DNA from: Alphaproteobacteria bacterium
Lineage (GTDB): Bacteria > Pseudomonadota > Alphaproteobacteria > JAAXGF01
Reading direction: 5' to 3'
DNA: 64,000 bases
NCBI GenBank assembly: GCA_963555825.3
Contig: CAUVXB020000001.1
Location: 416,001-480,000 of the forward strand
Every line of letters starts with the position of its first letter. Position 1 is the first letter of the stretch. The translations under genes were made by a program, and so were the position numbers. The notes below the pieces were generated by a model. It saw only the letters and a program-made list of their open reading frames with translations, was not told the DNA's origin and made no database searches. Of the stretch, positions 6,421 to 43,094 are shown in pieces.

Positions 6421-7671
6421 ATGAGGCAGGCGCGCGTGGAGCGGTTGGCGATTTTCGTCGGTTGCCTGTGCCTGCTTCTGGCGCCCATGACGGCGCGCGC
6501 GGCGTTGCCGCCCCACATCGTCCAGCGCATCCAGCTTGCCGCCCAGGAAAGCCGCTCGCTCGACCAGCGCGACCTTGCGATGGCGCGGATGCTCCAAAGT
6601 GGCGAGCTTGCAACCACGATGGCGCGCCATTCCGGCCGTCATGCCTCGGCGGCAATGAGCGAGGCTGTGGTCGGCTCGATCTCCGAATATCCCTCGCTCG
6701 CCGGCGAGATCGTCGCCACCGCGGTCGCCGTCGCGCCTGGGTTGCGCGACAGCATCGTCAGCAATTCGATCAAGGCGTTCCCGGCCTTCGCGCCGACCAT
6801 CGCCGCCGCCGGTGGCGTATCCGGCGCCGCACCGCCGGCCGGCTATTACGCCCAGACGCCGACCTATTACAGCCAGACACCGACCTATTACGGCCAGGCC
6901 CCCGCGCCGGCCTACGGCTATGGGCAGCCCGTCCAGCCGGCCTTCGGCCAGCAGGCGATGGCGGTCGGCGCGCCGGACATCGACGCGAATTTCACCGAGG
7001 GCGCGGGCGGCACGGGCGAGCGGATCTATGATCCCTTCGAGACCGTCAATCGCGGCACCTTCTTCGTCAATGACGTGCTCGACACCTTTCTGTTCCGGCC
7101 GCTTGCCATCGGTTATCGTTTCGTCACCACCGAAGGCATCCGCCGGTCGAGGCGGAACTTCTTCCTGAATCTCGGCTCGCCGGTCGTGCTCGCCAACGAC
7201 CTGCTGCAGCTCGAGATTGGCGGCGCCGGTGTCACCACCACGCGTTTCGTAATCAACTCGACCATCGGCGTCCTCGGCCTGTTCGAGATGGCCGCGGATT
7301 TCGGCTATGCGCCCCACCACGCCGATTTCGGCCAGACACTGCACAGTTACGGGTCGCAGCCGGGCGCCTATCTGGTGCTGCCGATCCTGGGGCCGAGCAC
7401 CGCGCGCGACGGCGTCGGCACCGCGGTCGACCTGCTCTTCGATCCGTTGTTCTGGCTGCTCGAGCCGTTGCCGAAATTCGGCCTCAACGTCGCCGAGGGT
7501 ACGACCCGGCGCGAGACGCTGATCGAGCCGCTCGACGACCTCAAGGCCGGTTCGGTCGATTACTATTCGGCGTTGCGCAGCGCTTACTATCAGGGCCGCG
7601 CGGTCGAGCTGCGCAAGGGCCGGACGGCCGATAGCAGCAAACTCGACGATCTCTTCGAATCGATGGAATAG
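6421..7671 (+). CDS. mlaA: MlaA/VacJ family protein with long N-terminal extension
   Basis: C-terminal DPFETVNR...FFLNL...RFVINSTIGVLGLF...DFGQTL...YLVLPILGPST.RD. Confidence 0.85.
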   Translation: MRQARVERLAIFVGCLCLLLAPMTARAALPPHIVQRIQLAAQESRSLDQRDLAMARMLQSGELATTMARHSGRHASAAMSEAVVGSISEYPSLAGEIVATAVAVAPGLRDSIVSNSIKAFPAFAPTIAAAGGVSGAAPPAGYYAQTPTYYSQTPTYYGQAPAPAYGYGQPVQPAFGQQAMAVGAPDIDANFTEGAGGTGERIYDPFETVNRGTFFVNDVLDTFLFRPLAIGYRFVTTEGIRRSRRNFFLNLGSPVVLANDLLQLEIGGAGVTTTRFVINSTIGVLGLFEMAADFGYAPHHADFGQTLHSYGSQPGAYLVLPILGPSTARDGVGTAVDLLFDPLFWLLEPLPKFGLNVAEGTTRRETLIEPLDDLKAGSVDYYSALRSAYYQGRAVELRKGRTADSSKLDDLFESME

Positions 7672-7765
7672 GACGCCATTCCGCGGCGCGCTGCGGCGCG
7701 CCCCGCTCGCCATTTTCTAATCGAGCCAGACACCTTTTTAATTCTTTGATGTCAGGTATATTAAA

Positions 7766-9407
7766 CCCGCATTTCCCAAGTATCGTCGATATTCAGTGCG
7801 GCGAGAAGGCGATTCTGCTATAAGAATCATGAAGTTGTAGCATACATGGAGCGGCGGATATGGCACACCCGATGGGTGAATCGAAACCGGGGTGCCTTCG
7901 GGTCGTTTTTGACCGTCGATTGAAGCTTGAATTCCACGGTTCCAAGATCACCTCTGATGCCGGGTTGCTCGCCTACCGGGAGCTTGACGATGCCCTCGGC
8001 CTGACTGAGATGGCCGAGGGTGTTTTCCAGGATAGCCGTACCGGCAAGAACGGATGGCACGGCATGACGGGTCAGTTTCGCCAGTCCGTTTTCGGGCGCC
8101 TTGGCGGCTATGACGATGTGAACGACGCCGACCGTCTGGGACGCGATCCCGCCATGCGCTGGATTGTTGGCGGCAAGGCCATCGAAAGACAGGCCGCTTC
8201 CACCAGCCAGATGGGACGCTTCGAGACGGAGCTATTGGCCACCGACGAGAACGTTGAAGCCTTGGTCGACATGAACGGGGTGTGGATCGACAAGGTTCAT
8301 GACCGCCATCCGCCGAAGATGATCATTCTCGACATGGACAGCAGCGTCAGCCCGACCCATGGCGAACAAGAGGGAACAGCGTACAATGGTCACTTCGGCT
8401 GTACCTGCTAGCATCCGCTATTCCTGTTCAACCAGTTCGGCGACTTGGAGAGATGTTCCCTGCGCCCCGGTAATGTTCACAGTGCCGACGGATGGCGGAA
8501 TGTTCTGGAGCCGGTGGTGATGCGCTATAAGGAAAGGAAGGTGCGGCTGTATTTTCGTGGCGATGCCGCCTTCGCCTCACCGGAGATATACGAATATCTC
8601 GAAGCCGAGGGATTACTCTACGTCATCCGCCTCAAAGCGAACGCGATTCTCCAGCGGAACATTGCCCATCTGCTTACGCGACCTGTCGGTCGCCCGCCCG
8701 ACCATGTTCGCCGTTTCCACGCCAGCTTCAGCTATCAGGCCGGATCGTGGAACAAGAAGCGCCGTGTCGTGGCCAAAGTGGAGTGGCACCCCGGCGAGCT
8801 GGTTCCTCGCGTCGGTTTCATCGTCACTAATCTGTCGCGCCCTACCAAGCGGGTGGTGGCGTTCTATAATCACCGTGGCACGGCGGAGCAGCACATCAAG
8901 GAAGGCAAGAACGCCATCAACTGGACCCGTCTGTCATGTCGCAAGTTCCGCAACAATGCCGTTCGGCTCCAGCTTCACGCCCTGGCCTACAATCTGGGCA
9001 ACTTCATGAGGACACTGGCTTTGCCGAAGGAGGTGGAGCACTGGTCGATGACGACGTTGCGCGACAAGCTGGTGAAGATCGGGGCCAAGGTTGTCCGACA
9101 TGGCCGCTACGTTACGTTCCAATTGGCTGAGGTGGCGGTGCCGAGGGACCTGTTCCGGAAAATCCTGAGCTTGATTGATGATCTGCGACGAAGACCCGCT
9201 CCGGCGTAGGCCGAGGGAATCGACGGCGAGGAGAAAGCGACAGGAGAGGTGTGTCTGGATGGCGAGAAAAATGACCGAGTGGCCTTCCAAGCGCGGGCCG
9301 ATTACCAAAATCATGCCATCGGATGGCTGCATAGGGGATACAGTTCCCTTGGCGGTGGGAAAGTGGTACGATTTCCACGAATTTGGATGGTATATGGGGA
9401 ATGTCGG
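7766..9407 (+). mobile_element. IS1380 family insertion sequence
   Basis: Imperfect terminal IRs (cccgcatttccca at 7766; tggggaatgtcgg ending 9407); flanks ttaaa / ttaag; transposase inside. Confidence 0.8.
7860..9209 (+). pseudogene. IS1380 transposase with in-frame TAG at 8409-8411
   Basis: ORFs 7860..8411 and 8445..9209 share one frame (YNGHFGCTC*HPLF, Tyr expected); TSDAG, LDMDSS, RGDAAF and YNHRGTAEQHIKEGK motifs. Confidence 0.88.
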
Positions 9408-13714: not shown

Positions 13715-14908
13715 ATGCGCGGTACGACGACGACACCGGTTGGCGAACGCCACGGCCCGCTGCTCGCCATGTTCGCGCTCGGCCACATGGCGAACGACTG
13801 GGCGCCGGGGGCGATGTGGATCATCGCGCCGGCGATCGCCGCGGCGATGGGTCTCTCGCCCGCCGAGATCGGCATCCTGTTCGCCATCAAGGGCACCGGC
13901 GCGGCGCTCGCGTTCCTGCCGGCGGGCGTGCTGGCCGACCGGGTCGCCAATCGCGGTGGCCTGTTGCTGGGTACTTTTTGGTGGGTCGCGATCGGCTATT
14001 TCGTCTCGTCGCTGGCGCCCGAGTTTTGGAGCCTCGCGCTTCTGCTCGCGCTGGCCAATGTCGGCGACGCGGCCTGGCACCCGGTCGCGACCGGCGTGCT
14101 CGCCCAGCGCATGCCGAGCCGCCGCGCCCAGGCGCTCGGCATTCACGCGGTCGGCGGCACGCTGGCCGAGGTGCTGGCGCCGCTCGCCACCGGGCTTCTG
14201 CTGACCTTCGTCGACTGGCGCGCGGCGATCATGCTCGCCGGCGTCCCGGCGCTGTTGATGGGGCTGGTCTTCATCCGCTACGCCGCGACGGTGCCGCGCT
14301 CGGGCGACGTGGCGATCTCGCGCGCCGACTTCGGCCAGCTGTTGCACGTGTGGCGTGGTCGCGAGGGCCTCGGCATGATCGCCATGGTCGGCGCCTACTC
14401 CATGGCGCTGATGGCGGCGCTCAGCATGACCCCGCTGTTCCTCATCGACGTGCACGGCGCCAGCGTGGCGACCGCGGGCGTCGTGTTTGCGGCGATGAGC
14501 CTCGTTGGCGCCATTGCGCAGCCCGTTCTCGGGTGGTTTTCGGACGCCATCGGCCGCCGCCCGTTGTTCATCGCGGGCAACGCGATCGCGGCGCTGGCCG
14601 CCGTCGTTGTCGTGCTGGCGCCCGGATTGCCCGTCGCGGTGCCCGCATTGATCGTCGCCGCCGGCGCGCTGATCGGCGTGCGTTCGTGCGTGCTCGCCGC
14701 GGCGGTCGAATTATCGGCCAAGCGCGAGGCGACGACGCTGGGCTTCACCTTCTCGCTGATGGACGGGCTCGGCGCTCTGGGCGCTCTGGTCGCCGGCGCG
14801 GTCGGCAACATCGACCTGCACTACGCCTTCCTGGTGACGGCGGTGCTGGCCGCCGCCGCCGGCGCCACGGCGCTGGCCGCGCCCTTCGGCGCGACAAGCG
14901 CGCGGTAA
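13715..14908 (+). CDS. MFS transporter
   Basis: About 12 hydrophobic segments; GVLADRV and GWFSDAIGRR motif A. Confidence 0.88.
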   Translation: MRGTTTTPVGERHGPLLAMFALGHMANDWAPGAMWIIAPAIAAAMGLSPAEIGILFAIKGTGAALAFLPAGVLADRVANRGGLLLGTFWWVAIGYFVSSLAPEFWSLALLLALANVGDAAWHPVATGVLAQRMPSRRAQALGIHAVGGTLAEVLAPLATGLLLTFVDWRAAIMLAGVPALLMGLVFIRYAATVPRSGDVAISRADFGQLLHVWRGREGLGMIAMVGAYSMALMAALSMTPLFLIDVHGASVATAGVVFAAMSLVGAIAQPVLGWFSDAIGRRPLFIAGNAIAALAAVVVVLAPGLPVAVPALIVAAGALIGVRSCVLAAAVELSAKREATTLGFTFSLMDGLGALGALVAGAVGNIDLHYAFLVTAVLAAAAGATALAAPFGATSAR

Positions 14909-15010
14909 CCGCCGGATGTTGCGCGCGGCTCCGGGGTTCTTCCTGAGTTGTCCTGGCGTCGGCCCGGGCGTACTGTCGGTGATCGCCTTCTGCACTCATG
15001 AGAGGGAAGG

Positions 15011-15397
15011 ATGATGCTGAAGAACCTCCTGAAGCTTTTCAAAAAGAGCCCCGAGGGTCAGGACAGGCGCCGCGAGCCGCGCGAGACGATCGAGGACGGC
15101 GAGGTCGAGATCAGAGGGCGGACCTACCGCCTGAACGATTGGACGCCGCGCGCGTTCATGGCCAAACCCTGCGATGTCGACTGCAATATTACCGACCGAC
15201 TCGAGGTCACCGTCCGCATCCGTTATCCGGACAAGAATATCGAGTTCGCCAGCCGCGCCATCGTCGTCCGGATCGACAAGGAAGGACAGGAACTCGCGGC
15301 CTATTTCGCGATGCTCGACGAAGCGGCCGAGACCGTGATCGCCAACCACTTCGGCGACGGCACGCAGACCTTGGACGACTTGCTCGGCGACGGCTGA
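15011..15397 (+). CDS. PilZ-like single-domain protein (paralogue of 9936..10289)
   Basis: RRREPR; DGEVEIRG.TY...DW aligns with DGTIEIDG.IY...NW; shared VVRID. Confidence 0.65.
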   Translation: MMLKNLLKLFKKSPEGQDRRREPRETIEDGEVEIRGRTYRLNDWTPRAFMAKPCDVDCNITDRLEVTVRIRYPDKNIEFASRAIVVRIDKEGQELAAYFAMLDEAAETVIANHFGDGTQTLDDLLGDG

Positions 15398-15434
15398 GCC
15401 TTGGTATAAAAGGCCGGCGGCACCGAACGTGGCT

Positions 15435-16067
15435 TCAGTGCTCGGCGATCCCGCGAAACGCCTCGGCGCCCCATAGGTCCTCGATCCGGTCGTCGCGGCC
15501 GCATCGGTAGCGGTAGAAATTGTAGCGAATCGGGTTCTTTTCGTAATAGTCCTGGTGATACCCCTCGGCCGGATAGAACGGCCCGGCGAGCTCGATCGGG
15601 GTGACGATCGGCCGGTCGAGCATGGCGGACGCTTCCAGCGCGCGCTTGGATTCCTCGGCCAATCGCTTCTGTTCCGCAGAATTCGCAAAGATGGCGGTCT
15701 GATAACTCTCGCCGCGGTCGCAAAACTGGCCGCCGCCGTCGGTCGGGTCGACGCTGCGCCAGAAGACGTCGAGCAGCGTGGCATACGATGTCTTGGTCGG
15801 GTCGTAGACGATGCGCACGGCCTCGCGGTGCCCGGTGCCGCCGGCGCTGACCCGCTTGTACGTCGGGTCGACCAGATCGCCGCCGGTGTAGCCCGAGGTC
15901 GTGCTGACGACGCCGGGGACATAGTCGAAGTCGGATTCCACACACCAGAAACAACCGCCGGCGAAGGTCGCGGCCTCGAGGCCGTCCTCGGCGGCGCGCG
16001 CGATCGACGCGGTGGTCAACGCCGAAAGCGCCATGGCGAAGCTGACGAGAAGAATTTTTCGAGGCAT
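15435..16067 (-). CDS. msrA: Peptide-methionine (S)-S-oxide reductase, exported
   Basis: FAGGCFWC, GH.EAV, FYPAEGYHQDYY; N-terminal signal peptide. Confidence 0.93.
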   Translation of the reverse strand: MPRKILLVSFAMALSALTTASIARAAEDGLEAATFAGGCFWCVESDFDYVPGVVSTTSGYTGGDLVDPTYKRVSAGGTGHREAVRIVYDPTKTSYATLLDVFWRSVDPTDGGGQFCDRGESYQTAIFANSAEQKRLAEESKRALEASAMLDRPIVTPIELAGPFYPAEGYHQDYYEKNPIRYNFYRYRCGRDDRIEDLWGAEAFRGIAEH

Positions 16068-16318
16068 CGGATGGCACTCCCTGAATCGACGAGCGGTCAT
16101 TTGCGTTGTCGTCCTAGGTGGGGGGTCGATCGGCGAATGCGAGTCGATCTCGCGGAATTTTGATCTCGGCGTGGACGATCCCGAGAAAGCGGCGGACAAT
16201 TTCGATACTCATCTTCGCTTTGCAAAACGCTTTTTCTGCGCCATGACTGCCTTCGCTGTTGCGTGCCCTGGTGGCGCGCGTAGGTTACGACGAGGGGCTC
16301 GATAAGGAGCGGCCGGTC

Positions 16319-17350
16319 ATGCGGTTTAGCGTGTTTCTTTCCTGTCATCTGTTGGATGTCAGCTATCCGCCCGAGCGGCTCTATGCCGAGATGCTCGAGC
16401 AGGCCGCGCTTGCCGAGAACCTCGGCTTCGACGGGCTGTCGTTGCCCGAGCATCATCTGGTCAACGTATTGATGAACCCGAACCCCCTGATGTTCGCGGT
16501 CAAGCTTGCGTCGGTGACCGAGCGGCTGCCGATCACCACGGCGGTCCTGGTGCTGCCGTTCCACGACATGCGCCGGCTGGCCGGCGACATCGCGCTCGCC
16601 GACATGCTGATCGGCGGCGAGCGGCTCGAGCTGGGTTGCGGGCGCGGCGCCTTCGCCTACGAGTTCGGCCGCTTCGGCGTACCGGTCGAGACCAGCCGCG
16701 CGGTGTTCGACGAATCGCTCGACGTGCTCGAGGCGCTGCTGAGCGGCGCGGACGTCGCCTGGGACGGCGATTACTACCAGTTCGAGCCGCTGACCATCAT
16801 GCCGCGCCCGTTGCGCAAGCCGCGCATCTGGATCGCCGCGCTCGGCCCCGAGGCGATCTATCACTGCGCGCGCAAGGGCTACGACGTGCAGACCACGCCG
16901 CTGCGCGGCGGCTTCGAGCTCGGCAAGAAGCAGGCCGCGGCGTTCCACCGCGGCAAGGCCGAGACCGCGGTCCCGATCGAGCTCTCGATGCTGCGCTCGG
17001 CCTATGTCGCGAGCAACGAGGCGGACGCCTGGGCGAAGCGCGAGATCGCCTAAGATTACGGCCGGCGCTTCACCAACGCCTTCGAGACGCCGGGCACGGT
17101 CACGGCCGGCGAGCTGGAGCTGATCGAGCTGGCCTACACGCTCGAGGACGCCGCCAAGCAGCTCATCGTCGGCACCGAGGCCGAGATCACCGACAAGATC
17201 GGCGCCTACGTCGATCTCGGCATGGACGAGATCGCGCTCGACATGCACTTGGGCATCGCGCACCGCGACGTCATGGCGTCGATGGAGCGCTTCGCCGCCA
17301 AGGTGATGCCGCAGTTCAAAGACACGCCCAGGCTGGTCGATGCGGGGTAG
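16319..17350 (+). pseudogene. LLM-class flavin-dependent oxidoreductase with in-frame TAA at 17051-17053
   Basis: LGFDGLSLPEHH and GRG motifs; the frame continues past TAA with LIVGT...MERFAAKVMP to TAG 17350. Confidence 0.85.
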
Positions 17351-29780: not shown

Positions 29781-31434
29781 GGGTGCGAGTCTCGCATGGC
29801 AGTGATGTCTGCGGCTTGGTTCGTTGAGTTCAGGCAGCGATTGCCATGGCTGCTGCACGTGGACTGATGTTGTCGTTGGCCGGTGTGTCGGTTGCGCTGA
29901 TCAGGGCCTTCCATGCCCGCTCGAAGCGGCCGGATTTGATCAGGGCGCGGAAGGTCAGAACAGCCTGTCCGCCGACGATCCGCCAGCGCATGCCGGAGCG
30001 CTTCATGCGCTGTGTCACCAGGGTCTTGTTGGCAGCTTCGACCACGCCTGAGCCGATGGCGATGCCCTCTTCCTTCAGGGCGTGGTAGCGCATGCGATGG
30101 CGATGCTTGCGGAAGAAGGCGAGTTCCCGCTCGGTCTCGGCCCGGTCCGGCGCAGCGGCGGCATCGCGAAGGTGGCGCAGCGCCCGGATCACCTTGGCGA
30201 CGCCACGGGGATCGTGACGGAGGATCTCGCGGTACTTCTCGAACCAGCCGGGCGCCACGGCATGGTCGGACGCGGTTTGCAGATGTTCGCAAGCATGCCA
30301 GAAGTCGATCACCTCGGTTTCGGGCGACAGGGTCTCCAGGAAGGTCCAGTTGTCGGCGGCGCCATCGGCGATAGCGACGATCCCGATCTCGGGGCGTGCT
30401 CGCCTGATGTGTGCGACTTCGCTTGCAAGCTGCGCCTTCAGCGTGAGCTTGCCGCTCTCCGGCATGCGGCCGAGATAGAGGGTCTTCAGGCGCTTGCCCT
30501 CGGCGTCGTGGAAGGAGACCGTGCCGCAGGCAGCCTCGCGCCAGGAGGCCTTGGCGCGACCGTCCTCGCCGGGTCTCAGCGGCACCATGACGCCGTCGAG
30601 GGAGACCGAGGCGGTGGTCGCGTCCTGCGGTATGCCCTCGGCCTCACGGATGCTGCCCAGCGTCTCCGGGCCGAGGCTCTCCCAGCATTCGTGCATGCTC
30701 AGGGTCAGGCGCTGCAGGGTGCTCACCGACGGCGTCATGGCGCCGGTCTTCGCAAAGAACGCCGCCGCTTCCCGGGCCGTGCAGTGACCCATCATCAGCA
30801 GACCGAGCTCGGCCGCCGGCCGCGTCAGGTAATCGTCGACGAGGCCCAGGCTCTCGTCGACCGGCACCGGCGATGCCCCGCTCGCGCCGCTGCGGTAACG
30901 CGCTCGCCGGTAGGTCACCGGACCGAGCGAGGTCATGATCGTCTTCGGCGTCACCGCGACCCGGAACCAGCTCTGCCCGTCCCGCTCGATCCGGGAAGCG
31001 CCATCGTCCCGGTTCTCGATGACGGCGCCCATGACATCGCGAGCGAACTCGTTCGTGGCCTCACGCACCCGCAACTCGACCTCCTCGGGCGCCTCGGGGC
31101 GCGGCTCGGAACGAAGCTCCTCGCGACACAGTGCGAGCACCCGGGCGGCCGCCTCGACGACCCGAGGAGGCAGGCCGGAAAGATCGATGGACGAAGGCGC
31201 CGGAGGCGGGGATACTGCCATGGGAATGCTCCCGATGTTGGGTTTCGAGACACGGCATCGTACCGCTTCTGGCGGTGCGGAGCGTTCCCACCTTCCCCTG
31301 CTCGACCCTGCCGTCGTAACAAAATCCTGCCTTGGAGCGGCCCATTGTCACGAATAGCCGATTTCGGCCGTTCGTCTCGACACAAAAAACGCACTAAATC
31401 AATGACTTAGATTTTCCATACCAGACCCACACCC
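29781..31434 (-). mobile_element. ISKra4 family (mutator-like) insertion sequence
   Basis: IRs gggtgcgagtctcgcatgg / ccataccagacccacaccc; 8-bp TSD CCTACGGC at 29773-29780 and 31435-31442. Confidence 0.85.
29830..31221 (-). CDS. ISKra4-type DDE transposase
   Basis: SLDG, IADGA..NW, IDFWHACEHL, GSGVVEAANK..QRMKRSGMRW. Confidence 0.85.
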   Translation of the reverse strand: MAVSPPPAPSSIDLSGLPPRVVEAAARVLALCREELRSEPRPEAPEEVELRVREATNEFARDVMGAVIENRDDGASRIERDGQSWFRVAVTPKTIMTSLGPVTYRRARYRSGASGASPVPVDESLGLVDDYLTRPAAELGLLMMGHCTAREAAAFFAKTGAMTPSVSTLQRLTLSMHECWESLGPETLGSIREAEGIPQDATTASVSLDGVMVPLRPGEDGRAKASWREAACGTVSFHDAEGKRLKTLYLGRMPESGKLTLKAQLASEVAHIRRARPEIGIVAIADGAADNWTFLETLSPETEVIDFWHACEHLQTASDHAVAPGWFEKYREILRHDPRGVAKVIRALRHLRDAAAAPDRAETERELAFFRKHRHRMRYHALKEEGIAIGSGVVEAANKTLVTQRMKRSGMRWRIVGGQAVLTFRALIKSGRFERAWKALISATDTPANDNISPRAAAMAIAA

Positions 31435-32298
31435 CCTACGGCCTGACGGCACAGCGCGGCAAGATGGTCGACGCGGCGCTCGATGGATTCTGCGAGGTGG
31501 TCGACGCGTCCGATCTGGTGCGCCTGCAGCGCCTGGTCAAAAGCCCGGCCGAACTGGCCTATGTGCGGCGCTCGGGCGCGCTGGCCGACGAAGCGCTCGC
31601 CATTGCCAACCGCATGACCGTGCCGGGCGAGGCGAACGGCGCGGGTCTATGGCGAGATGATGAATGCGATGATGCGCGGCGACGGCGACCCGACGGCGAG
31701 CCGCTGGCCGATGGGCTGCGGCGAGGAGGCGATGCTGGTGCGCTACCACACCGGCCACGGCAATGTCGGCGCCCAAGACCAGGTGACCTTCGAGTTCGCC
31801 GCGTCCTACCGCCACTACCATACGGCGTTGATGCACGTCGTCCTGACCGGCGAGGCCGATGCGCGCCAGGCCGACATGCTGGCGGCCTGCATCGCGGCGC
31901 TCGATGCCTGCCAGGACGCGCTCAAGCCGGGTGCGACGGTCGGCGGAATATTCGACGTCCACGCCCGGGTGATGACCGAGATGGGGCAGGGCGCCAACAC
32001 CCTCAACGCCTGCGGCTACACCATGGGGGCGACCTATCCGCCGACCTGGATGGACTGGCCGATGCTCTACACCGGCAACCCACAGGTCATCGAGCCGGGC
32101 ATGGTGTTCTTCATGCACATGATCCTGCTCGACAACGAGACCGGCCTGACCATGTCGCTGGGCGAGACCGCGATCGTGACCGATGGCGCCTGCGAGCCAG
32201 TCAACCACGCGCCGCGCGCGCTGGTCGTCAATTAAATCTTGAAGCTCTATGAGCGGACTGCCATCTATTGAAAGGCGGATGATGGTAAGGGGACGATC

Positions 32299-35529: not shown

Positions 35530-35679
35530 GGCGCGCCTTCCTTGCCGCATGCGATGATGCGCACAGATTAGCGAGTAACCGGGTGCGGGGCGACCGCCGC
35601 GTCGCCACGCCGCTGGCGGGTGAAACGCCCGCCGTGTCGGGGTATGATCGACATCCGCCTCGAGAACGGGAGACAAGCG

Positions 35680-36327
35680 ATGCGTTCCTATCTACTTCTG
35701 CTCCGCTTCGTCGTGGTCAACGCCGTCGCGCTGGCCATCCTGGCGGTGCTCTGGCTGCAGGGCTGGGTGTCGCTGGTGTTTGAAAGCGACATTACCCATC
35801 TGACCGTGGTCATTTCCGCCGTGTTCGCCGTCGGGCTGGCGATCGCCACGGCCAAGGTGTGGCGCTGCAGCCACGAGCTCAACGCGGTGCGCGCCGACCG
35901 ACAGGGTGGCGAGACGCGGCTTCGCTGGTACCGCGACCTGACGGGTCGCGCCGCGGACGGCGCGCGCGGTATACTCGCCGACTGCCTGCGTTCAAGACTC
36001 TACGCGCGCATCGCCGTCGTGCGCACCATGGCCAACAGCCTGGTCGTACTCGGCCTGATCGGCACGGTGGTCGGCTTCATCATCGCGCTCTCGGGCGTCG
36101 ACGCGGGGGCGGCGACCGATGCCAGCACCGTCGGCACCATGGTCTCGACCCTGATCCAGGGCATGGCGGTGGCGCTCTACACCACGTTGGTCGGCGCGGT
36201 TCTGCACATCTGGCTGATGATGAACTACCAGGTGCTGGCGACCGGCACGGTCAATCTCGCCAACGCCATCATCGAGACGGTCGAGGCGCCCGGCGAAGCG
36301 GGCGGCCCGGCACTCGAAGCGGCATGA
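35680..36327 (+). CDS. MotA/TolQ/ExbB proton-channel family protein
   Basis: LGLIGTVVGFIIAL and GMAVALYTTLVG signatures; four hydrophobic segments. Confidence 0.82.
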   Translation: MRSYLLLLRFVVVNAVALAILAVLWLQGWVSLVFESDITHLTVVISAVFAVGLAIATAKVWRCSHELNAVRADRQGGETRLRWYRDLTGRAADGARGILADCLRSRLYARIAVVRTMANSLVVLGLIGTVVGFIIALSGVDAGAATDASTVGTMVSTLIQGMAVALYTTLVGAVLHIWLMMNYQVLATGTVNLANAIIETVEAPGEAGGPALEAA

Positions 36328-36941
36328 TCCCAGATCCCTTTCACGACACCGACGAGGCGAGCGGGACGGTCTTTCGCGATGTCCTGACGCTTGCACTGCT
36401 GGGCTTTCTGGCGGTCATCGTCATCCTGCTACCCTTCGTCAACCCAAAAGGGCGCAAGGCCGAATCGATGGCGCCGCCGCCCGGCAACGTCATCGTCGAG
36501 ATCACCTGGCCGGCCGAGATGAACGCCGACATCGACCTTTGGGTGCAAGCGCCGGGTGACGTGCCGGTCGGCTATTCGAACAAGGGAGGAATCGTGTTCA
36601 ACCTGCTGCGCGACGATCTTGGCAAGTTCATGGACCCGACCAATATCAACCACGAGGTGGCCTATACGCGCGGCCTGATACCGGGCGAGTACACGGTCAA
36701 CGTGCACGCCTATCGCATCGACACCAAGAACCCGCCACCGATCGAGGTCAATGCCGTGGTCAGCGTCAAGCAGGAGAGCGCCACGGCCGATGTCGTGCCG
36801 GTCCTCGGCGCGTCGGCGATGCTGGTCCGACTCGGCCAAGAGCTGACCATTTTCCGCTTCAAACTCGACGAAACGGGACGCGTCGTCGAAGGCTCCGTCC
36901 ACAGCCTGTTCCGACCACTCCGATCACTGGGGGTAAAATAG
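36324..36941 (+). CDS. Single-TM partner of the MotA/ExbB-like protein (TM Asp; YfaP/DUF2135-like soluble domain)
   Basis: ATGA overlap with the upstream gene; TVFRDVLTLALLGF..TM; DIDLWV..P and PGEYTVNVHAY. Confidence 0.72.
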   Translation: MIPDPFHDTDEASGTVFRDVLTLALLGFLAVIVILLPFVNPKGRKAESMAPPPGNVIVEITWPAEMNADIDLWVQAPGDVPVGYSNKGGIVFNLLRDDLGKFMDPTNINHEVAYTRGLIPGEYTVNVHAYRIDTKNPPPIEVNAVVSVKQESATADVVPVLGASAMLVRLGQELTIFRFKLDETGRVVEGSVHSLFRPLRSLGVK

Positions 36942-36943
36942 CC

Positions 36944-37456
36944 ATGTTGCAACTGCCGCTACTCTACGCCTTGTTCGCCGTGCTCGCCGCGGCGCTGGCG
37001 ATCGTCGCGGTCTGGTCGCGGCGCTCGCTCGGCACCCGCGTCGGGAGCGTCGGACTGTTGGTGATCACCTTGGCCGTGGGCTATGTCGCCTATGCCGATC
37101 TCTTGAGCCGGCCCAAGCCGGCGATGCTCGAGTATCGGCGCGCCGGCATGGCCGAGGCGGATGTGCTCGCCGCGGCGCTGCGCGAGCACGAGGGCATTTA
37201 CCTGTGGCTCAAGCTGCCCGAGTTCATCGAGCCGCGCTATTACGTGCTGCCGTGGGACCGCTCGACCGCCCAACAGTTGCAGGACGCCATGCGCAAGGCC
37301 GACCGGGACAATTCGACGATCCGCATGCGCAACCCATTCGAGCCGTCGCTGGAATTGCGCGATGCGCCGCGCTTTTACGCGCTGCCGCAGCCGAAGCTGC
37401 CCGACAAGCCCTATCCGCCGCCACTCGAATACAACCACCCCAGCCTGGCGATCTAG
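36944..37456 (+). CDS. Membrane protein of unknown function (2 TM, Pro-rich C-terminus)
   Basis: Starts 2 bp after the upstream stop; two N-terminal TM segments; IYLW..EPRYYVLPW. Confidence 0.75.
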   Translation: MLQLPLLYALFAVLAAALAIVAVWSRRSLGTRVGSVGLLVITLAVGYVAYADLLSRPKPAMLEYRRAGMAEADVLAAALREHEGIYLWLKLPEFIEPRYYVLPWDRSTAQQLQDAMRKADRDNSTIRMRNPFEPSLELRDAPRFYALPQPKLPDKPYPPPLEYNHPSLAI

Positions 37457-37503: not shown

Positions 37504-37565
37504 ATGGGGTCAGACTCCTTTATTCTGATTTGTATTCAATCAATAAAAATAGAGTCTGACCCCAT
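37504..37565. repeat. REP-like AT-rich palindrome, copy 2
   Basis: Perfect 14-bp IR atggggtcagactc / gagtctgaccccat around an AT-rich core. Confidence 0.8.
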
Positions 37566-37626: not shown

Positions 37627-38448
37627 TTAGGGCTGTTGGCGGCGTTCTTTCTGCTGGCCGAAATACTGGCCGATCATCAAAAGGGTAATCGAAACGACGA
37701 TCAGGCAGGTCGAGATCGCCGCGATCGTCGGGTCGATCTGGTCGCGCAGCGAATTGAACATGCGGCGCGTCAGCGTCGCGTTCTCGCCGCCCGAGATGAA
37801 CAGCGCGACGATGACCTCGTCGAGCGAGGTGATGAAGGCGAACAGCGCGCCGGCGATGACCGAGAACCGGATCTGCGGCAGGGTGATCGACAGGAAGGCG
37901 CGCAATCGCGGCGCGCCCAGGCTGCGCGCGACCATCTCCTGGTTCATGTCGTACGTCTTGAGCCCGGCGGTGACCGTGACCACGACGAAGGGAATCGCGA
38001 GCACGGTATGCGCCATGATCAGGCCGGTCAGCGTATAGTTCAGCCCCAGCTTGGCGTAGAGGAAGAAGACACCGATGCTGACCAGGATGATCGGCACCAT
38101 CAGCGGCATCATCAGCGCGACCTGGATCATGTTGGTGATACGGAAGCGCGATACCTGCAAGCCATAGGCGGCGGCCGTGCCGAGCGTGGTCGCGACGACC
38201 ATGGTGACGACCGCGACCTTGAGCGACACGACAGTCGCTTCGATCCATTCGAGCGAGCCGAAGTACTCCTCATACCAGCGGAAAGACCACTCGCGCGGCG
38301 GGAACTCGAGATAGGTCGAATCGGAGAACGACATCGGGATGACGATGAACGACGGCACGACCAGGAACAGCATCACCAGGCCGCAGGCGATATAGAGCCA
38401 GAGCCGCCTGAAGTGAGTGATCTGCGTATCTGAAGCCGGTCCGAACAT
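37627..38448 (-). CDS. Polyamine/opine-type ABC transporter permease (PotC-like)
   Basis: EAA loop (EMVARSLGA), FAFITSLDEV. Confidence 0.9.
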   Translation of the reverse strand: MFGPASDTQITHFRRLWLYIACGLVMLFLVVPSFIVIPMSFSDSTYLEFPPREWSFRWYEEYFGSLEWIEATVVSLKVAVVTMVVATTLGTAAAYGLQVSRFRITNMIQVALMMPLMVPIILVSIGVFFLYAKLGLNYTLTGLIMAHTVLAIPFVVVTVTAGLKTYDMNQEMVARSLGAPRLRAFLSITLPQIRFSVIAGALFAFITSLDEVIVALFISGGENATLTRRMFNSLRDQIDPTIAAISTCLIVVSITLLMIGQYFGQQKERRQQP

Positions 38449-39228
38449 CAGCCTATTTTCCGAAAACCTTGTCGAGCCCGAACAGCTTGTTCAGGCCATA
38501 GAGGATGGCCAGCGTGGCGATCAGCAGGACGACGCCCAGCGCGCTCGCCGCGCCCCAATTGGCGTAGAGGTTGATCGACGTTTCGATGCGCTGCGCCCAC
38601 ATGATGATCTTGCCGCCGCCCAACAGCGCCGGGGTGACGTAGAAGCCGAGGCAGAGCACGAAGACGAGCACGACGCCGGCGAACAGCCCGGGCAGCGACA
38701 GCGGGAAGAAGACCCGCCAGAAGGCGTTGATCGGACTGGCGCCAAGATTGGCCGCGGCCTTGAGGAAATCACGATCGATCGACTTCATCGCGGCATAAAG
38801 CGGCAGCACGAGGAAGGGCAGCAGGATTTGCACCATGCCGATCACCGTGCCGGTGAAGTTGTGCACCAGCCGGAGCGGTTCGTCGATGATGCCCGTCTCG
38901 ATCAGCCAGCCGTTGATCACCCCCTTGCGCTGCAGTAGGACGAGCCAGGCATAGGTGCGCACGAGCAGCGAGGTCCAGAACGGCAACAGCACGAAGATCA
39001 TGCAGATGCCCGCCGCGCGTTTGCCGAGTTGCGACAACATATAGGCGAGCGGATAGCCCATCAGGATGCAAATGCCGGTGACGACGAAGCTGATCTCGAA
39101 GGTCGTGCGGAAAGTCTTGATGTAGGACTTCGAGCCGAACATCCGCATAATTCTCGAGCGTCCAGTTGCCCTGGACGTCGAAGTGAGTCGGACCCGATTT
39201 CCTTGGACACAGAATTGGCTTAATCGAA

Positions 39229-39660
39229 GTGTCCAAGGAGGACCGGAACATGACCGACAATTTTGAGAACAAAGTTGCTGTTGATGGGCCTGTGGTAAAC
39301 GAGGGCGAGCTTGGCTCGTCCACGTTTTCCCCGGGCCAGGTTTCGCCGGCAGGCCCGCTGGGACTTGGCCAGCGGTGGACGGTGACGCGCAAGCGTGAGG
39401 TTGCCCTGCGGCTTTTGCGTGGCGAGCCGGTGGAACTTTTGTCGCGGCAGTTGGGCGTGGAGATTTTCCGGCTCGAGCAGTGGCGTGAGAAGGCGATCGC
39501 CGGGATCGATGCCTCGCTCAAGGAACGCAAGGGCGATCCGGTGAAGGCGGAACTGGACATCGCCATGAAGCGGATCGGGGAGTTGATCATGCAGGTGGAA
39601 CTGCTGGAGGCCAAGACGGAGACGTCCGGCCCTTTGGGGCGGCGGAGGTCGCGGCGATGA
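39229..39660 (+). CDS. IS OrfA (HTH)
   Basis: RKREVALRLLRGEPVELLSRQLGV HTH-like segment; ATGA overlap with OrfB; start uncertain (39229 or 39250). Confidence 0.75.
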   Translation: MSKEDRNMTDNFENKVAVDGPVVNEGELGSSTFSPGQVSPAGPLGLGQRWTVTRKREVALRLLRGEPVELLSRQLGVEIFRLEQWREKAIAGIDASLKERKGDPVKAELDIAMKRIGELIMQVELLEAKTETSGPLGRRRSRR

Positions 39661-40568
39661 GTGCCGCCACCTCTCCCGGCACGGGTTTGGCCTACGGCCT
39701 CCAGCGGGTCTGTGCGGCCTGGGGTTTTGCCCGTTCCTCGTTCTACGCCATGAAATCCCGGCAGCAGGCCACCGCTGAGCGCCCACCAGCAAAGCGCCGG
39801 GGACCGAAGCCCTCGATCTCGGACGAGGCTCTGCTGGTGGCCATCGAGGCCGACCTGGAGGCATCCCCCTGGGAGGGCGAGGGACACCGCAAGGTCTGGG
39901 CTCGGCTTCGGGTCTGTCGTGGCATCCGTGTTTCCCGCAAGCGGGGGCTCCGGGTGATGCGCGAGAACAACCTGCTCTCGCCCCATCGCTGCCGCCGCCG
40001 TGGCGGAAATCCCCATGTCGGTGAGATCATCACCCATGCCCCCAACCTCATGTGGGGCACGGACGGCGTTCGGGTGTTCACGGTGGACGACGGCTGGGGC
40101 TGGATATTCACCGCCATCGAGCATTGGAACGCCGAGTGCGTCGGCTGGCATGTGTGCAAGCGAGGCGACCGCTTCGCCGCCCTTCAGCCGATCTCCATGG
40201 GGCTTGCGAGGCTGTATGCCTCGACCTCCGCCGGTGCGGCGCGGGGGCTGGCCTTGCGGATGGATCACGGCTCCCAGTATCTGTCGGACCACTTCACCAA
40301 CCAGATCAAGTTCTGGGGCATCCAGCCGTCCTACGCCTTCGTCGAACAGCCCCAGACCAACGGCGTCGCCGAGAGGTTCAATCGCACGCTCAAGGAACAG
40401 ATCATCCATGGCCGCATCTACCGCAACATCGCGGAGCTGCGGAACGCCGTCCGCGGGTTCGTCGAACAGTACAATGCCCAGTGGATCGTGGAGAAGAACG
40501 GCTACCTGAGCCCCGCTCAAGCTCGTCAGGCGTGGCACACCGCGATGTCACTCAGGCCCGCCGCATGA
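39657..40568 (+). CDS. IS OrfB DDE transposase (rve)
   Basis: WGTDG, DHGSQY, NGVAERFNRTLKE. Confidence 0.9.
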   Translation: MSAATSPGTGLAYGLQRVCAAWGFARSSFYAMKSRQQATAERPPAKRRGPKPSISDEALLVAIEADLEASPWEGEGHRKVWARLRVCRGIRVSRKRGLRVMRENNLLSPHRCRRRGGNPHVGEIITHAPNLMWGTDGVRVFTVDDGWGWIFTAIEHWNAECVGWHVCKRGDRFAALQPISMGLARLYASTSAGAARGLALRMDHGSQYLSDHFTNQIKFWGIQPSYAFVEQPQTNGVAERFNRTLKEQIIHGRIYRNIAELRNAVRGFVEQYNAQWIVEKNGYLSPAQARQAWHTAMSLRPAA

Positions 40569-41886
40569 GACAAACTTGTGTCCAAGGAACCGGGTGCGAT
40601 ACACCTGGACGTCGAAGAACGACAGCCACATGAGCCAGCCGACAGGCAAGAACAGAATAAGCAGGACGAGGAACAGCGAGGGCGAGCACAGCGCGAAGAC
40701 GCTCTGATGCTCCCGCTTGGCGTCCTTGGTCAATCCCTCGGCGTTTTCGCGACTGGCCGGGACCGCCGCGACCTGGTCCGTGGTAATCGCCGTCATCGGT
40801 CGTCCGGCACGACGATCGTGTCCGCTGGATGCAGGCCGAGACGGATCGGCTCGCCGGGACCGGGAACCGCGGCGAGCGACTCGCGGCGGCTCGAGCTGCG
40901 CACGGCAATTTCGATGCCGCCCGTGAGCGCGACGTAGAACAGGAAGGGTTCGCCCTGGTAGACGAGCTCCTTGACCGTCCCGCTGAGCGTATTGAGGTTC
41001 TGGCCGTCGCCGTCGGCGAGCAGCTCGAGCTTTTCGGGCCGGACGACGAGAAGCTGCCGCTTGTCGGATGATATCGGTGGCTCGCCGAGCCGCAAGGTCG
41101 CGCCGTCGAGATCGACGCTTGAGCCATTCACCTCGACCGGCAGGAAGGACGATTCGCCGATGAAGTCGGCGACGAACTTGCTGCGCGGCCTTTCGTACAG
41201 CTCCTTGGGCGCGTCGATCTGCTGGAACTGTCCGAAATCGATGACCGCGACGCGGTCCGACATGGTCAGCGCCTCGCGCTGGTCGTGCGTCACGTAGACC
41301 GTGGTGCGGCCGAGTTTTTCATGCAAGTGCCTGATTTCGATCTGCATTTGCTCGCGCAGCTTCTTGTCGAGCGCCGAAAGCGGCTCGTCCATGAGCAGGA
41401 TTTGCGGGTCGAAGACGATCGCGCGCGCGAGCGCCACGCGCTGCCGCTGACCGCCCGAGAGCTGATCGACGCGGCGCTGCCCGAGATCGCCCAGCTGGAC
41501 CAGATCGAGCGCGCCCTGGACGCGCTCGGCGATTTCGTCCTGCGCGACGCGGCGCAGCTTGAGTGGAAAGGCGACATTGTTGTGGACGTTCATATGCGGG
41601 AACAGGGCGTAGTTCTGGAACACCATGCCCACGCCGCGCTTGTGCGGCGGTTTGCGAATGACCTCTTCGTCGCCGAACCTGACGCTGCCCGAATCGGGCC
41701 GCACGAAACCCGCCAACACCATCAAGAGCGTGGTCTTCCCCGAACCGGAAGGGCCGAGCAAGGTGACGAACTCGCCGCTTTTGACGTCGATGCTGACGTT
41801 ATCGAGGGCCTTCAGGCTGCCGTATGAGGTGGTCCCACTTTGTTGGACAGTTTGGCAGCGCGGTTAAGGTGTATTCCGTTGTTTGA

Positions 41887-42816
41887 TCATGCTGCCAAAA
41901 TCCTTTTTATCACATCCTGTTGCTGTTGTTGAGCCTGTGGGGATGTGGGCAAGGCGCGAGCCTTGTCCATCATATCCACAGGTTGACCGGCCCCGTAGGC
42001 CTCGGCCGGCGTTTGACCGTCGAGGGACGAATGGGGCCGCTCGGTGTTGTAGAAGCCGATCCACTCGCCGATGACCCGTTCGGCGTGGAAGCCGTCGGTG
42101 AGCTCGTGTAGGTAGACCGCCTCATACTTGAGAGACCGCCACAGGCGCTCGATGAAGATGTTGTCCATGCAGCGGCCCCGACCGTCCATGGAGATGCGGA
42201 TGCTCGCGTTCTTGAGCACGCCGGTGAAGTCGAGGCTGGTGAACTGGCTGCCCTGATCCGTATTGAATATCTCCGGCTGGCCGTAGCGGGCCAGCGCGTC
42301 GCCCAAGGCCTCGGCGCAGAATCCAGCGTCCATGGTGTTCGACAGCCGCCAGGATAAAACGTGGCGCGTCGCCCAGTCCATGATCGCTACCAGGTACAGA
42401 AAGCCACGCTGGACGGGGATATAGGTGATGTCGGCGCACCAGACCCGATTGGGCTGGTCGATAGCCATCCCTTTGAGAAGATAAGGATAAATCCGGTGCA
42501 TGGGATGCGGCACGCTGGTTCTCGGCGCCTGATAGATCGCCTCCAGGCCTATCAATCGCATCAACCTGCGAACCCGGTGACGGCCGACGCAAACGCCGTC
42601 CCGCCGCAACTGGCGGACCATCTGGCGGCTGCCGTAGAACGGGTACTTCATGAACAACTCGTCGATCCGACGCATCAGCGCCAGACTCGAAGGGCTCTCC
42701 CCCCTGGGCGCATAATAGAACGAGGACCGGCCGATCGAAAGCAGGCGGCATTGACGGCTCAAGCTCAGCTCGGGGGCGTCGCGTGTGATCATCGCCTTGC
42801 GCTCCCCCCGGCTCAT
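41887..42816 (-). CDS. IS3 OrfB transposase
   Basis: WCADITY, NTDQGSQF, DNIFIERLWRSLKYE. Confidence 0.92.
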   Translation of the reverse strand: MSRGERKAMITRDAPELSLSRQCRLLSIGRSSFYYAPRGESPSSLALMRRIDELFMKYPFYGSRQMVRQLRRDGVCVGRHRVRRLMRLIGLEAIYQAPRTSVPHPMHRIYPYLLKGMAIDQPNRVWCADITYIPVQRGFLYLVAIMDWATRHVLSWRLSNTMDAGFCAEALGDALARYGQPEIFNTDQGSQFTSLDFTGVLKNASIRISMDGRGRCMDNIFIERLWRSLKYEAVYLHELTDGFHAERVIGEWIGFYNTERPHSSLDGQTPAEAYGAGQPVDMMDKARALPTSPQAQQQQQDVIKRILAA

Positions 42817-43094
42817 CGCTTGAGCCCTCTGGCTAAAAAATCCCGTTCCACCGTCAGCTCGCCGATCTTGGCGTGAAGGTCGCGGACCTCGGATTCATGA
42901 TCCCGGCAAGCGCGGTTGGCGCCGTTCGAAAACACTTCGCCCAGACCGTCCACCGCCTGGCGCTTCCAGGCGCTCACCTGGTTCGGATGCACCTTGTGCT
43001 TGGCCGCGATCTGCTGGATCGTCTTGTCGCCCCGCAGCGCTTCCAGCGCCACCCGGGCCTTGAATTCCGCCGTAAACCGGCGTCGATTCGTCAT
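42813..43094 (-). CDS. IS3 OrfA
   Basis: RRRFTAEFKARVALEA..HPNQV..WK..KIGEL.VERDFL. Confidence 0.92.
   Translation of the reverse strand: MTNRRRFTAEFKARVALEALRGDKTIQQIAAKHKVHPNQVSAWKRQAVDGLGEVFSNGANRACRDHESEVRDLHAKIGELTVERDFLARGLKR

Follow-up and report, generated by a model that had tools for sequence, protein, structure and literature searches.

Which work does a MotA/ExbB-type channel protein perform when the two genes that follow it belong to no described family? The question is raised by three adjacent genes (hereafter, the trio) at positions 35680-37456 of a 64,000-nucleotide stretch of an Alphaproteobacteria genome (contig CAUVXB020000001.1, positions 416,001 to 480,000). We call this whole stretch the window. 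The genes are as follows.

35680-36327, + strand, gene 1 (putative A subunit): 215 aa, MotA/ExbB-family channel protein with four predicted transmembrane (TM) segments
36324-36941, + strand, gene 2 (putative B subunit): 205 aa, single-pass protein with TM Asp19 and a DUF2135-type beta-sandwich, predicted to be periplasmic
36944-37456, + strand, gene 3 (putative C subunit): 170 aa, two-TM hairpin, predicted periplasmic alpha/beta domain, Pro-rich tail

The reading that we prefer, with a probability of about 0.58, is that the trio represents a so far undescribed family of MotA/ExbB-type inner-membrane complexes, driven by protons and having a periplasmic output.

Genes 1-3 form one tight operon. 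The start of gene 2 lies within the stop of gene 1 (ATGA overlap, 36324-36327), and the TAG stop of gene 2 is followed by a 2-bp gap and the ATG of gene 3 at 36944. A Shine-Dalgarno-like run, GGGAG, lies 5' of the ATG at 35680. The coupling had been pointed out in the original prediction, which was made from the bare sequence, and the motifs quoted there are all present (GLIGTVVG and ALYTTLVG in gene 1; FRDVL, DIDLWV and PGEYTVNVH in gene 2). Database searches returned 5425 relatives of gene 2 (E <= 0.001, 90%-clustered database) and 392 of gene 3, none of the latter being named; the genes are therefore real and are not chance open reading frames (ORFs). Genes 2 and 3 have no model in any library, and the sources call both 'hypothetical protein'.

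Gene 1 is a member of the MotA/ExbB family

Gene 1 belongs to the MotA/ExbB family, as it scored 37.4 bits against Pfam MotA_ExbB (PF01618; cut-off 22.9, E 2.4e-9) over residues 103-192. Matches to the NCBIfam and PADLOC models of ZorA, MotP, PomA, MotA and TolQ were all far below cut-off. The best of these weak matches in both libraries were to ZorA models (E 6.7e-5 in NCBIfam and 2.6e-7 in PADLOC) and covered the TM region only; the ZorA score was 22 bits against a cut-off of 100. With a family profile built from 33 members (alignment A3), the best PDB match was MotA (8gqy_A, E 1.1e-5), and the GxxGTxxG and ALxTTLxG motifs were aligned in it. Further matches were to the ZorA-like chain 8vvn_C (E 0.0037) and to PomA and TolQ chains. 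Since MotA, ZorA-like, PomA and TolQ chains were all matched, the gene 1 family appears to be about equally distant from all the known branches.

Hydropathy analysis gave four TM segments (5-23, 38-56, 122-140 and 162-180). The 56-residue loop 57-112 carries 12 Lys/Arg, while the two short loops have no Lys or Arg. By hydropathy and charge, loop 57-112 and both the termini should be cytoplasmic, and the predicted topology is MotA-like with a very small cytoplasmic part.

The available text of a study of TolQ and ExbB (PMC12215075) describes a polar ring of threonines in TolQ that adjoins the essential Asp23 of TolR, and kink prolines in the pore helices (Pro138 and Pro187 of TolQ, Pro141 and Pro190 of ExbB). 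We aligned gene 1 to E. coli TolQ by way of the TolQ encoded in the host genome itself. In this alignment T129 and T169 of gene 1, which belong to its last two TM segments, fall on Thr145 and Thr178 of E. coli TolQ (numbers counted along the alignment). T169 is kept in all the 100 bacterial and in 29 of 31 phage gene 1 rows, and T129 in 95 and 23 of them, respectively.

Gene 2 is predicted to join a MotB-like helix to a DUF2135-type sandwich

Gene 2 has a single hydrophobic segment (residues 20-38), which is immediately preceded by D19 in an FRD motif. The Asp is present in at least 90% of 57 diverse relatives. Key residues were also followed in 143 rows (105 bacterial and 38 phage), and Asp19 was kept in 96 of the bacterial ones. 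Among the phage rows the Asp occupies the aligned column in 32, lies at the start of the helix in five as judged by eye, and one row is truncated; an Asp is thus kept in each of the 37 phage rows long enough to include the N-terminus. Conservation of this residue among homologues, on which the idea of a motor had been made to depend, was borne out. Gene 2 has the predicted features of such a subunit, namely a single N-terminal TM helix, an Asp near its cytoplasmic end and a gene adjoining that of the A subunit. The helix is similar to those of MotB, ExbD and TolR in pattern only, judging from profile comparisons: the best PDB match of the gene 2 profile, 8qyd_F ('Membrane protein'), was not significant (E 0.47), the TM Asps being aligned in it, and MotB_plug was faintly matched by only 1 of the 57 relatives.

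A weak match confined to the TM part of gene 2 (E 8.7e-4, positions 4-49) was found in one further genome (G172, locus L111), where a 335-aa gene 1-like ORF is also present (E 3e-11). From their sequences, these two may form another unclassified MotA/B-like pair.

Gene 2 itself had no Pfam, NCBIfam or PADLOC match at E <= 1, and no Pfam domain or informative name was found among 120 listed relatives. The family is large, comprising 1474 clusters at 50% identity, 192 of which are at E <= 1e-30. The AlphaFold model (AlphaFold 2; predicted local distance difference test score, pLDDT, 90.5; predicted template modelling score 0.79) consists of a helix (11-39), a linker of about 15 residues and an eight-strand beta-sandwich (56-181). 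Neither an ExbD fold nor an OmpA-like peptidoglycan-binding domain was seen in gene 2 by Pfam, NCBIfam or the model. The original prediction that gene 2 is not a standard ExbD, TolR or MotB is upheld by the sandwich in this model.

Its impression of a YfaP/DUF2135-like domain was likewise supported by profile comparison. In four genomes, the gene 2 profile matched VIT-domain proteins of ~1000 aa over their last ~125 residues (E 1.9e-6 to 4.6e-5), and in two of the three VIT proteins fetched Pfam DUF2135 lies within the matched stretch. In hhalign comparisons of the gene 2 sandwich with two DUF2135-bearing VIT C-termini, the probabilities were 95.4% and 97.1%, and the motifs W..D..D.DLWV and PG.Y are common to both sides. 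PF09906 (DUF2135) was touched by 5 of the 57 gene 2 relatives (best E 1.3e-4). The nearest named Atlas clusters, DUF2135 or PPC with scores of 0.83 and 0.82, serve as leads only. By profile, the gene 2 sandwich is homologous to DUF2135, the protein itself falling below Pfam's own threshold. Pfam marks only 48 residues of the sandwich in the VIT proteins, and the true length of DUF2135 would therefore be ~125 residues.

VIT proteins that have the VIT domain at the N-terminus and a C-terminus corresponding to the gene 2 sandwich are encoded at loci L113 (1083-4439), L114 (3970-6840) and L115 (1534-4560); one sandwich-bearing VIT protein also has TPR repeats. Four longer, fused forms of gene 2 were set aside as not genuine, because their good segments are separated by Arg/Ala-rich stretches, in the manner of frameshifted gene calls.

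In fold searches, Foldseek gave no match to the gene 2 model at E <= 0.001. Its best rows were an unnamed Streptomyces protein and TerD proteins (E 1.9e-3 to 1.9e-2, TM-scores 0.38-0.45). A wide structural aligner also ranked TerD first (2qz7_B, Z 8.8, root mean square deviation 4.1 over 132 residues; 2kxt, Z 7.6, 4.2 over 137 residues), with the following rows at Z <= 6.2, among them the C-terminal sandwich of a subtilisin-like protease (Z 5.9, 17% identity). In sequence, TerD (PF02342) was matched by 1 of the 57 relatives at E 0.13. We call the fold TerD-like and not TerD, because the Z values barely exceed the level reached without a true match. No significant PDB sequence match was obtained for gene 2 or gene 3.

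Residues W62, D69, D71, W73, G83, L94, R96, D97, D98, G100, E111 and N126 are invariant in the 57 members, and W62, D69, D71, R96, D97, D98, G100, E111 and R116 in all the 143 rows. An invariant NLLRDDLG segment is specific to the family. The invariance of the acidic cluster D69, D71, D97, D98 and E111 suggests a metal or ligand site, and if a metal is bound it would probably be Ca2+.

Gene 3 is a two-TM protein with a small soluble domain

Gene 3 has two hydrophobic segments (6-24 and 33-54) and 9 Pro in its last 32 residues, which agrees with its earlier description as a two-TM protein with a Pro-rich tail. Its AlphaFold 2 model (pLDDT 88.3) shows TM helices 3-24 and 29-55, followed by a small alpha/beta domain and, at the end, an extended Pro-rich stretch. 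The inter-helix loop 25-32 carries 3 Arg, and in the topology predicted from this Arg-rich hairpin loop the domain would be periplasmic, like the gene 2 sandwich. Charge counts thus suggest a periplasmic location for the soluble domains of both proteins; the predicted periplasmic portion of gene 3 is only ~115 residues long. The invariant residues of gene 3 cluster in the soluble part (E81, I85, P97, Y100, W104, F144, P148, P153 and K155).

No family was assigned to gene 3 by Pfam (at a meaningful E), NCBIfam, PADLOC or PHROGs, and in Pfam neither TonB_C nor TolA was matched. His is absent from residues 1-54 and hence there is no SHLS-type motif. The wide fold search returned only helical hairpins over residues 1-57, and Foldseek only weak small-barrel matches (E >= 0.025). 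Prediction of a complex between residues 48-205 of gene 2 and 56-170 of gene 3 gave a score of 0.19 against a mark of 0.32, which speaks neither for nor against binding.

The trio is conserved as a unit

The co-occurrence of the three genes elsewhere, which had been left as a test in the original prediction, was observed at every range of relatedness. In the loci of seven related genomes, genes 1 and 2 are adjacent in all seven and gene 3 is next to them in six, the seventh being cut by a contig end; one of the seven is ordered 1-3-2. Of 79 loci from the genomes of named species, 76 have the complete trio in order, and the exceptions are one contig end and two loci with one partner below the tblastn limit. 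In 17 distant loci from 16 genomes, where gene 2 identity goes down to ~30%, hidden Markov models (HMMs) detected gene 1 in all 17 and gene 3 in 16, with the gene order unchanged.

The named carriers are mostly Alpha- and Gammaproteobacteria (Azospirillum, Skermanella, Arenibaculum, Geminicoccaceae, Arenicellales and Poriferihabitaceae), and a few trio-bearing metagenome-assembled genomes (MAGs) are labelled outside these classes. Full-length gene 2 was present in 17 of 401 genomes of a phylum sample; it occurs in 7 of the 7 genomes that represent one genus and in 9 of the 11 that represent one family. On plasmids, gene 2 matches were limited to seven Azospirillum megareplicons (H21-H27), each with two matching places. 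One locus (L035) has two trios 7 kb apart (~7388-9055 and 14832-16553), and several MAGs contribute two trio loci each.

We found no conserved fourth gene in the 79 loci, where the genes directly 3' of the trio were not run against Pfam. Naive ORF clustering gave no further gene in more than 19 loci, and three other large ORF clusters were antisense shadows of genes 1-3. The window and up to 19 of the 79 loci have an ABC transporter close to the trio; these loci all belong to the closest relatives, and we regard the proximity as inherited gene order. The gene directly 5' of the trio varies widely among the 77 loci that have one; these upstream neighbours include ABC-transporter parts, CN-hydrolases, esterases, Sel1, CBS, GlmS, Amidase_3 and BON-LysM proteins. 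As the neighbours vary and no further gene is widely common, we consider the trio to be a self-contained module.

The host assembly, which is 99.3% complete, contains only two MotA_ExbB genes, gene 1 and a clear TolQ (E 2.5e-48 to PDB TolQ). The latter is followed by the only ExbD-family gene and by a 302-aa Pro/Ala-rich ORF, an arrangement like tolQ-tolR-tolA. In this genome we found no flagellar stator or other MotA gene and no TonB-dependent receptor barrel; a Ton-like role of the trio in the host is unlikely for want of such a barrel.

Phages carry versions with a shortened gene 1

The original prediction had not foreseen phage-borne copies of the trio. By tblastn, gene 2 relatives were found in 29 phage records (27 Rhizobium and 2 Sinorhizobium) at 26-44% identity and at least 80% query cover. 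Two of these records were examined in detail and both have the trio. The temperate Rhizobium phage 16-3 encodes p038 (138 aa; gene 1 HMM, E 5e-10), p040 (gene 2, E 4e-43) and p042 (gene 3, E 2e-12), which keep the order of the trio but are separated by small ORFs; in phage RHph_X2_25 genes 1, 2 and 3 were detected at E 2e-24, 4e-44 and 1e-11. IMG/VR yielded 38 further contigs with gene 2, of which 30 have gene 1, 32 have gene 3 and 27 have all the three.

PHROGs has no family for genes 1-3 or for p038-p042 of phage 16-3. A PHROGs scan of seven viral contig loci placed six near named phage functions, the seventh having unnamed PHROGs only. The named neighbours include DNA polymerase, exonuclease, SbcCD-like nuclease, clamp loader, UvsX-like recombinase, primase, ribonucleotide reductase, endolysin, tail protein and terminase. 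A gene for a trypsin-like protease of the periplasmic type lies directly 5' of the trio in phage 16-3, RHph_X2_25 and one viral contig (L116, 3241-4140; L117, 3589-4236; L126, 3969-4676), and a DegP-like trypsin-PDZ gene lies 5' of the trio at a bacterial locus (L061, 5976-7088).

Phage gene 1 is shorter than its bacterial counterpart. Between HMM positions <= 25 and >= 175, the median span is 132 aa in 31 phage rows versus 204 aa in 98 bacterial rows, and the piece missing from the phage proteins is the cytoplasmic loop. Two phage-labelled rows of 200 and 202 aa are from IMG/VR contigs that group with bacteria.

A quick tree of the 143 gene 2 rows was made with a midpoint root and with support values only from the Shimodaira-Hasegawa-like approximate likelihood ratio test, the careful search being unfinished. 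A 92-row clade (support 95) holds the window gene, 87 bacterial rows and 4 IMG/VR contigs. The tree also has a distant bacterial clade of 15 rows and several phage lineages, and one bacterial row, which may be a prophage, stands among the 16-3-like phages. As the tree lacks a true root, the direction of transfer cannot be read from it.

How the complex may work

By homology, gene 1 would form a ring, probably a pentamer, with the TM helix of gene 2 as the axle inside it and Asp19 beside Thr129 and Thr169. The linker of ~15 residues would lead from this helix to the DUF2135-type sandwich in the periplasm, and gene 3 would be anchored by its TM hairpin, its small conserved domain and Pro-rich tail also being periplasmic. 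As protons pass, Asp19 would be protonated and deprotonated in turn beside the Thr ring, and this passage would make A move against B, in the manner of MotAB, ExbBD and TolQR. The likely recipients of the work are the gene 2 sandwich and gene 3, which would act on an envelope target. Because the phage versions do without the cytoplasmic loop of gene 1, the site at which this work is done is probably the membrane or the periplasm. We infer that gene 3 is a partner or the output of the complex; the idea put forward earlier that it is a force transducer fits its predicted topology and its strict co-occurrence with the other two genes. A more far-reaching proposal, to which we give a little short of even odds, is that the trio defines a new class of ion-driven 5:2-type motors of bacteria and phages, whose axle would bear a metal-binding DUF2135 sandwich where others have a cell-wall anchor, and whose output would pass to a dedicated, hairpin-anchored periplasmic partner; phages would have a minimal stator, with an A-subunit core of about 125-140 aa and no cytoplasmic domain, for acting on the host envelope during infection.

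Several observations weigh against the proton-driven complex proposed here. Asp19 is not universal: nine rows, forming one family-level clade with the helix motif FDPLGVMLFKAL, have no Asp at the aligned column; they have a Lys within the helix, and their nearest Asp is five residues upstream. T129 is replaced by Lys in four bacterial rows of one clade and by Asn in 7 phage rows. The kink prolines of TolQ and ExbB have no counterpart in gene 1, which has V122 and W178 there instead, and alignment A3 contains no invariant Pro. Comparison of the gene 2 TM helix with TolR of the host genome gave E 0.28, which is not significant by itself, and the TerD fold match is barely above the level common for models that have no true match. 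Both the 5:2 stoichiometry and the proton drive would follow from homology alone. Finally, the flanking genes, which differ between lineages, gave no pointer to a target or function.

The clade without the Asp comprises loci L098-L106 from nine genomes of one family (G096, G206, G301, G305, G323, G375, G377, G425 and G429), in which gene 1 keeps both threonines. In a sister clade (L093, L095-L097) gene 2 keeps the Asp and gene 1 has Lys in place of T129. The two clades may represent alternative charge arrangements.

Other explanations

The presence of gene 2 relatives in the 29 Rhizobium/Sinorhizobium phage records and the 38 IMG/VR contigs raises the question whether the trio is a module of phage-host or phage-phage conflict (for superinfection exclusion, or as a Zorya-type envelope sensor) that is phage-borne in origin, the chromosomal copies being domesticated or defensive. 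The phage lineages form a grade around the main bacterial clade in the quick midpoint-rooted tree, the distribution is patchy (12 of 41 relatives, and 17 of 401 phylum-sample genomes with a full-length gene 2), some genomes have two copies, and the weak best NCBIfam and PADLOC matches of gene 1 are ZorA models. We nevertheless consider this unlikely. Neither a nuclease gene nor any other effector gene accompanies the trio, the ZorA scores fall far short of the cut-off (22 versus 100 bits) and gene 1 has no long tail. The trio is also retained throughout some lineages (in 7 of 7 genomes for one genus and in 9 of 11 for one family), its bacterial neighbours are ordinary metabolic and envelope genes, and 4 of the 7 phage loci lie among replication and nucleotide-metabolism genes and not in a moron-like spot; the tree, having no true root, gives no direction of transfer. 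The phage loci also bear on a proposal that we regard as highly improbable, in which the phage trio times lysis through a proton leak that collapses the membrane potential like a pinholin, and the bacterial copies are its remnants. An endolysin gene does lie directly 3' of the trio in viral contig L134 and ~3 kb upstream of it in L126, and a lysozyme gene ~4 kb upstream in RHph_X2_25. However, in most phage loci the neighbours of the trio are DNA polymerase, exonuclease and SbcCD-like genes, the copies in bacteria are intact, well conserved and outside prophages, and elaborate periplasmic domains would be needless for a leak.

The trio might instead be a gated ion channel or transporter, in which gene 1 conducts H+ or a metal ion and the gene 2 sandwich is a periplasmic sensor of, or gate for, Ca2+ or another metal. 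The characterised MotA/ExbB-family proteins known to us all use ion flow to produce movement, and the always-present gene 3 would have no role in such a scheme; hence we hold this to be improbable, in spite of the invariant acidic cluster in the sandwich, the calcium-binding nature of the best fold matches (TerD, and a nuclear magnetic resonance entry of a 'calcium-bound form'), the lack of a rotor-facing cytoplasmic domain with a loop that is dispensable in phages, and the missing kink prolines. Least probable of all, with only a slim chance, is a divergent Ton- or Tol-type energiser of an outer-membrane receptor or a Pal-like system, with gene 3 as the TonB/TolA analogue. The layout of a channel, an Asp-bearing single-pass protein and a membrane-anchored, Pro-bearing periplasmic protein is the same, and the host genome has no ExbB besides TolQ. 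Yet that genome, at 99.3% completeness, has no TonB-dependent receptor barrel and already possesses a tolQ-tolR-tolA-like cluster, and gene 3, which matches no TonB_C or TolA family, has two TM helices, no SHLS-type motif and a periplasmic part of only ~115 residues.

Comparison with known systems

The proposed complex resembles TolQ-TolR-TolA and ExbB-ExbD-TonB in having three adjacent genes for a channel, a single-pass Asp protein and an anchored periplasmic third protein, and in the two pore threonines conserved in gene 1. It differs from them in the four TM segments of gene 1 (instead of three) and the absence of both kink prolines, in the DUF2135/TerD-like sandwich that replaces the ExbD fold, and in the TM hairpin of gene 3, which has no TonB_C or TolA domain, in a host without TonB-dependent receptors. 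Unlike the TonB and TolA transducers, gene 3 has no long spacer, its Pro-rich part being confined to the last ~32 residues. With the MotAB and PomAB stators the trio shares a four-TM A subunit, whose best PDB profile match is MotA 8gqy_A, and a TM Asp in B; gene 2, in contrast, has no OmpA-like peptidoglycan-binding domain, and the gene 1 loop, being of only 56 residues and missing in phages, cannot form a torque-generating interface. The likeness to ZorAB is limited to the weak TM-region matches of gene 1 to ZorA models and 8vvn_C. The scores are far below curated cut-offs, the 215-aa gene 1 has no long ZorA tail, no ZorC/D/E-type genes are near the trio, and genes 2 and 3 have no PADLOC match.

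As for the periplasmic head, the gene 2 sandwich aligns by profile to DUF2135 (PF09906; YfaP-type proteins and the C-termini of VIT proteins), with the motifs W..D..D.DLWV and PG.Y in common, but it is fused to a MotB/ExbD-like TM helix and contains the invariant NLLRDDLG segment in addition. Among beta-sandwiches of the TerD and PPC kinds, TerD proteins gave the best, though weak, fold matches.

No description of the trio architecture was found in the open-access literature, supplements aside. Searches on DUF2135 (alone or with MotA) and on YfaP function returned nothing, and those on TerD with ExbB/MotA/TolQ, on phage-encoded stators and on phage 16-3 gave no description of the trio. The available text of a paper on MotAB evolution (PMC12505986) mentions varied 'generic ion transporters' and not the trio architecture; its supplements might list members.

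Surroundings of the trio in the window

Two further features lie next to the trio.

35620-35648, + strand, sigma-70-like promoter match: GTGAAA-17-TATGAT, 9 of 12 consensus positions, a consensus match only
37506-37528, + strand, terminator-like hairpin with T-rich tail: from a pattern scan, in the AT-rich spacer 3' of gene 3

The hairpin is to be regarded as weak, because the scan found 1 terminator-like site where shuffled sequences gave 1.3. The flanks within ~6 kb contain amidohydrolase, short-chain dehydrogenase/reductase, methyltransferase and ABC-transporter genes and insertion sequence (IS) transposases. As had been stated from the sequence, annotation of these ~6-kb flanks showed no flagellar, TonB-receptor, Tol or Zorya effector genes.

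The ABC-transporter operon 3' of the trio (37627-43094) looks interrupted by IS elements. An IS3-type ORF pair (39229-40568) lies between the permease genes and the ATPase gene, and a second IS3-type element (41887-43094) adjoins the 5' end of the ATPase ORF, which begins at the Walker A motif and matches ABC_tran from profile position 16. On the other side, an M24 peptidase gene seems to be frameshifted: ORF 31657-32235 covers only positions 53-207 of the Peptidase_M24 profile, and an overlapping ORF in another frame (31464-32252) opens with sequence resembling the missing front. Another mobile element close to the trio is a 463-aa ORF at 29830-31221, which matches UPF0236 (transposase-like).

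In public sequencing data, the segment 35400-37700 is nearly whole in 14 runs, and there are 20 holder runs from 11 studies; one run holding it is labelled sponge metagenome. Marine-sediment RNA libraries contain pieces from relatives that are 90-95% alike to this segment. RNA-library contigs overlap genes 1 and 2 in part; one piece is identical over 173 bases (36012-36184), and another of 375 bases with 14 differences spans the gene 1/2 junction. These contigs do not establish transcription, because DNA can be present in such libraries.

Significance of the trio

The MotA/ExbB superfamily comprises, as far as we know, the only rotary motors powered by ions that transmit energy outward from the inner membrane. 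Its known branches are flagellar, Ton, Tol, gliding and Zorya, and each of them opened a field of its own. The trio would add a branch with thousands of members, two of whose three proteins have neither a family model nor a name, which has a different periplasmic head and is also carried by phages. With about 130-140 residues and no cytoplasmic loop, the phage A subunit would make a natural minimal stator, by means of which one could ask how small a working motor of this type can be. For DUF2135, the trio would provide the first functional setting.

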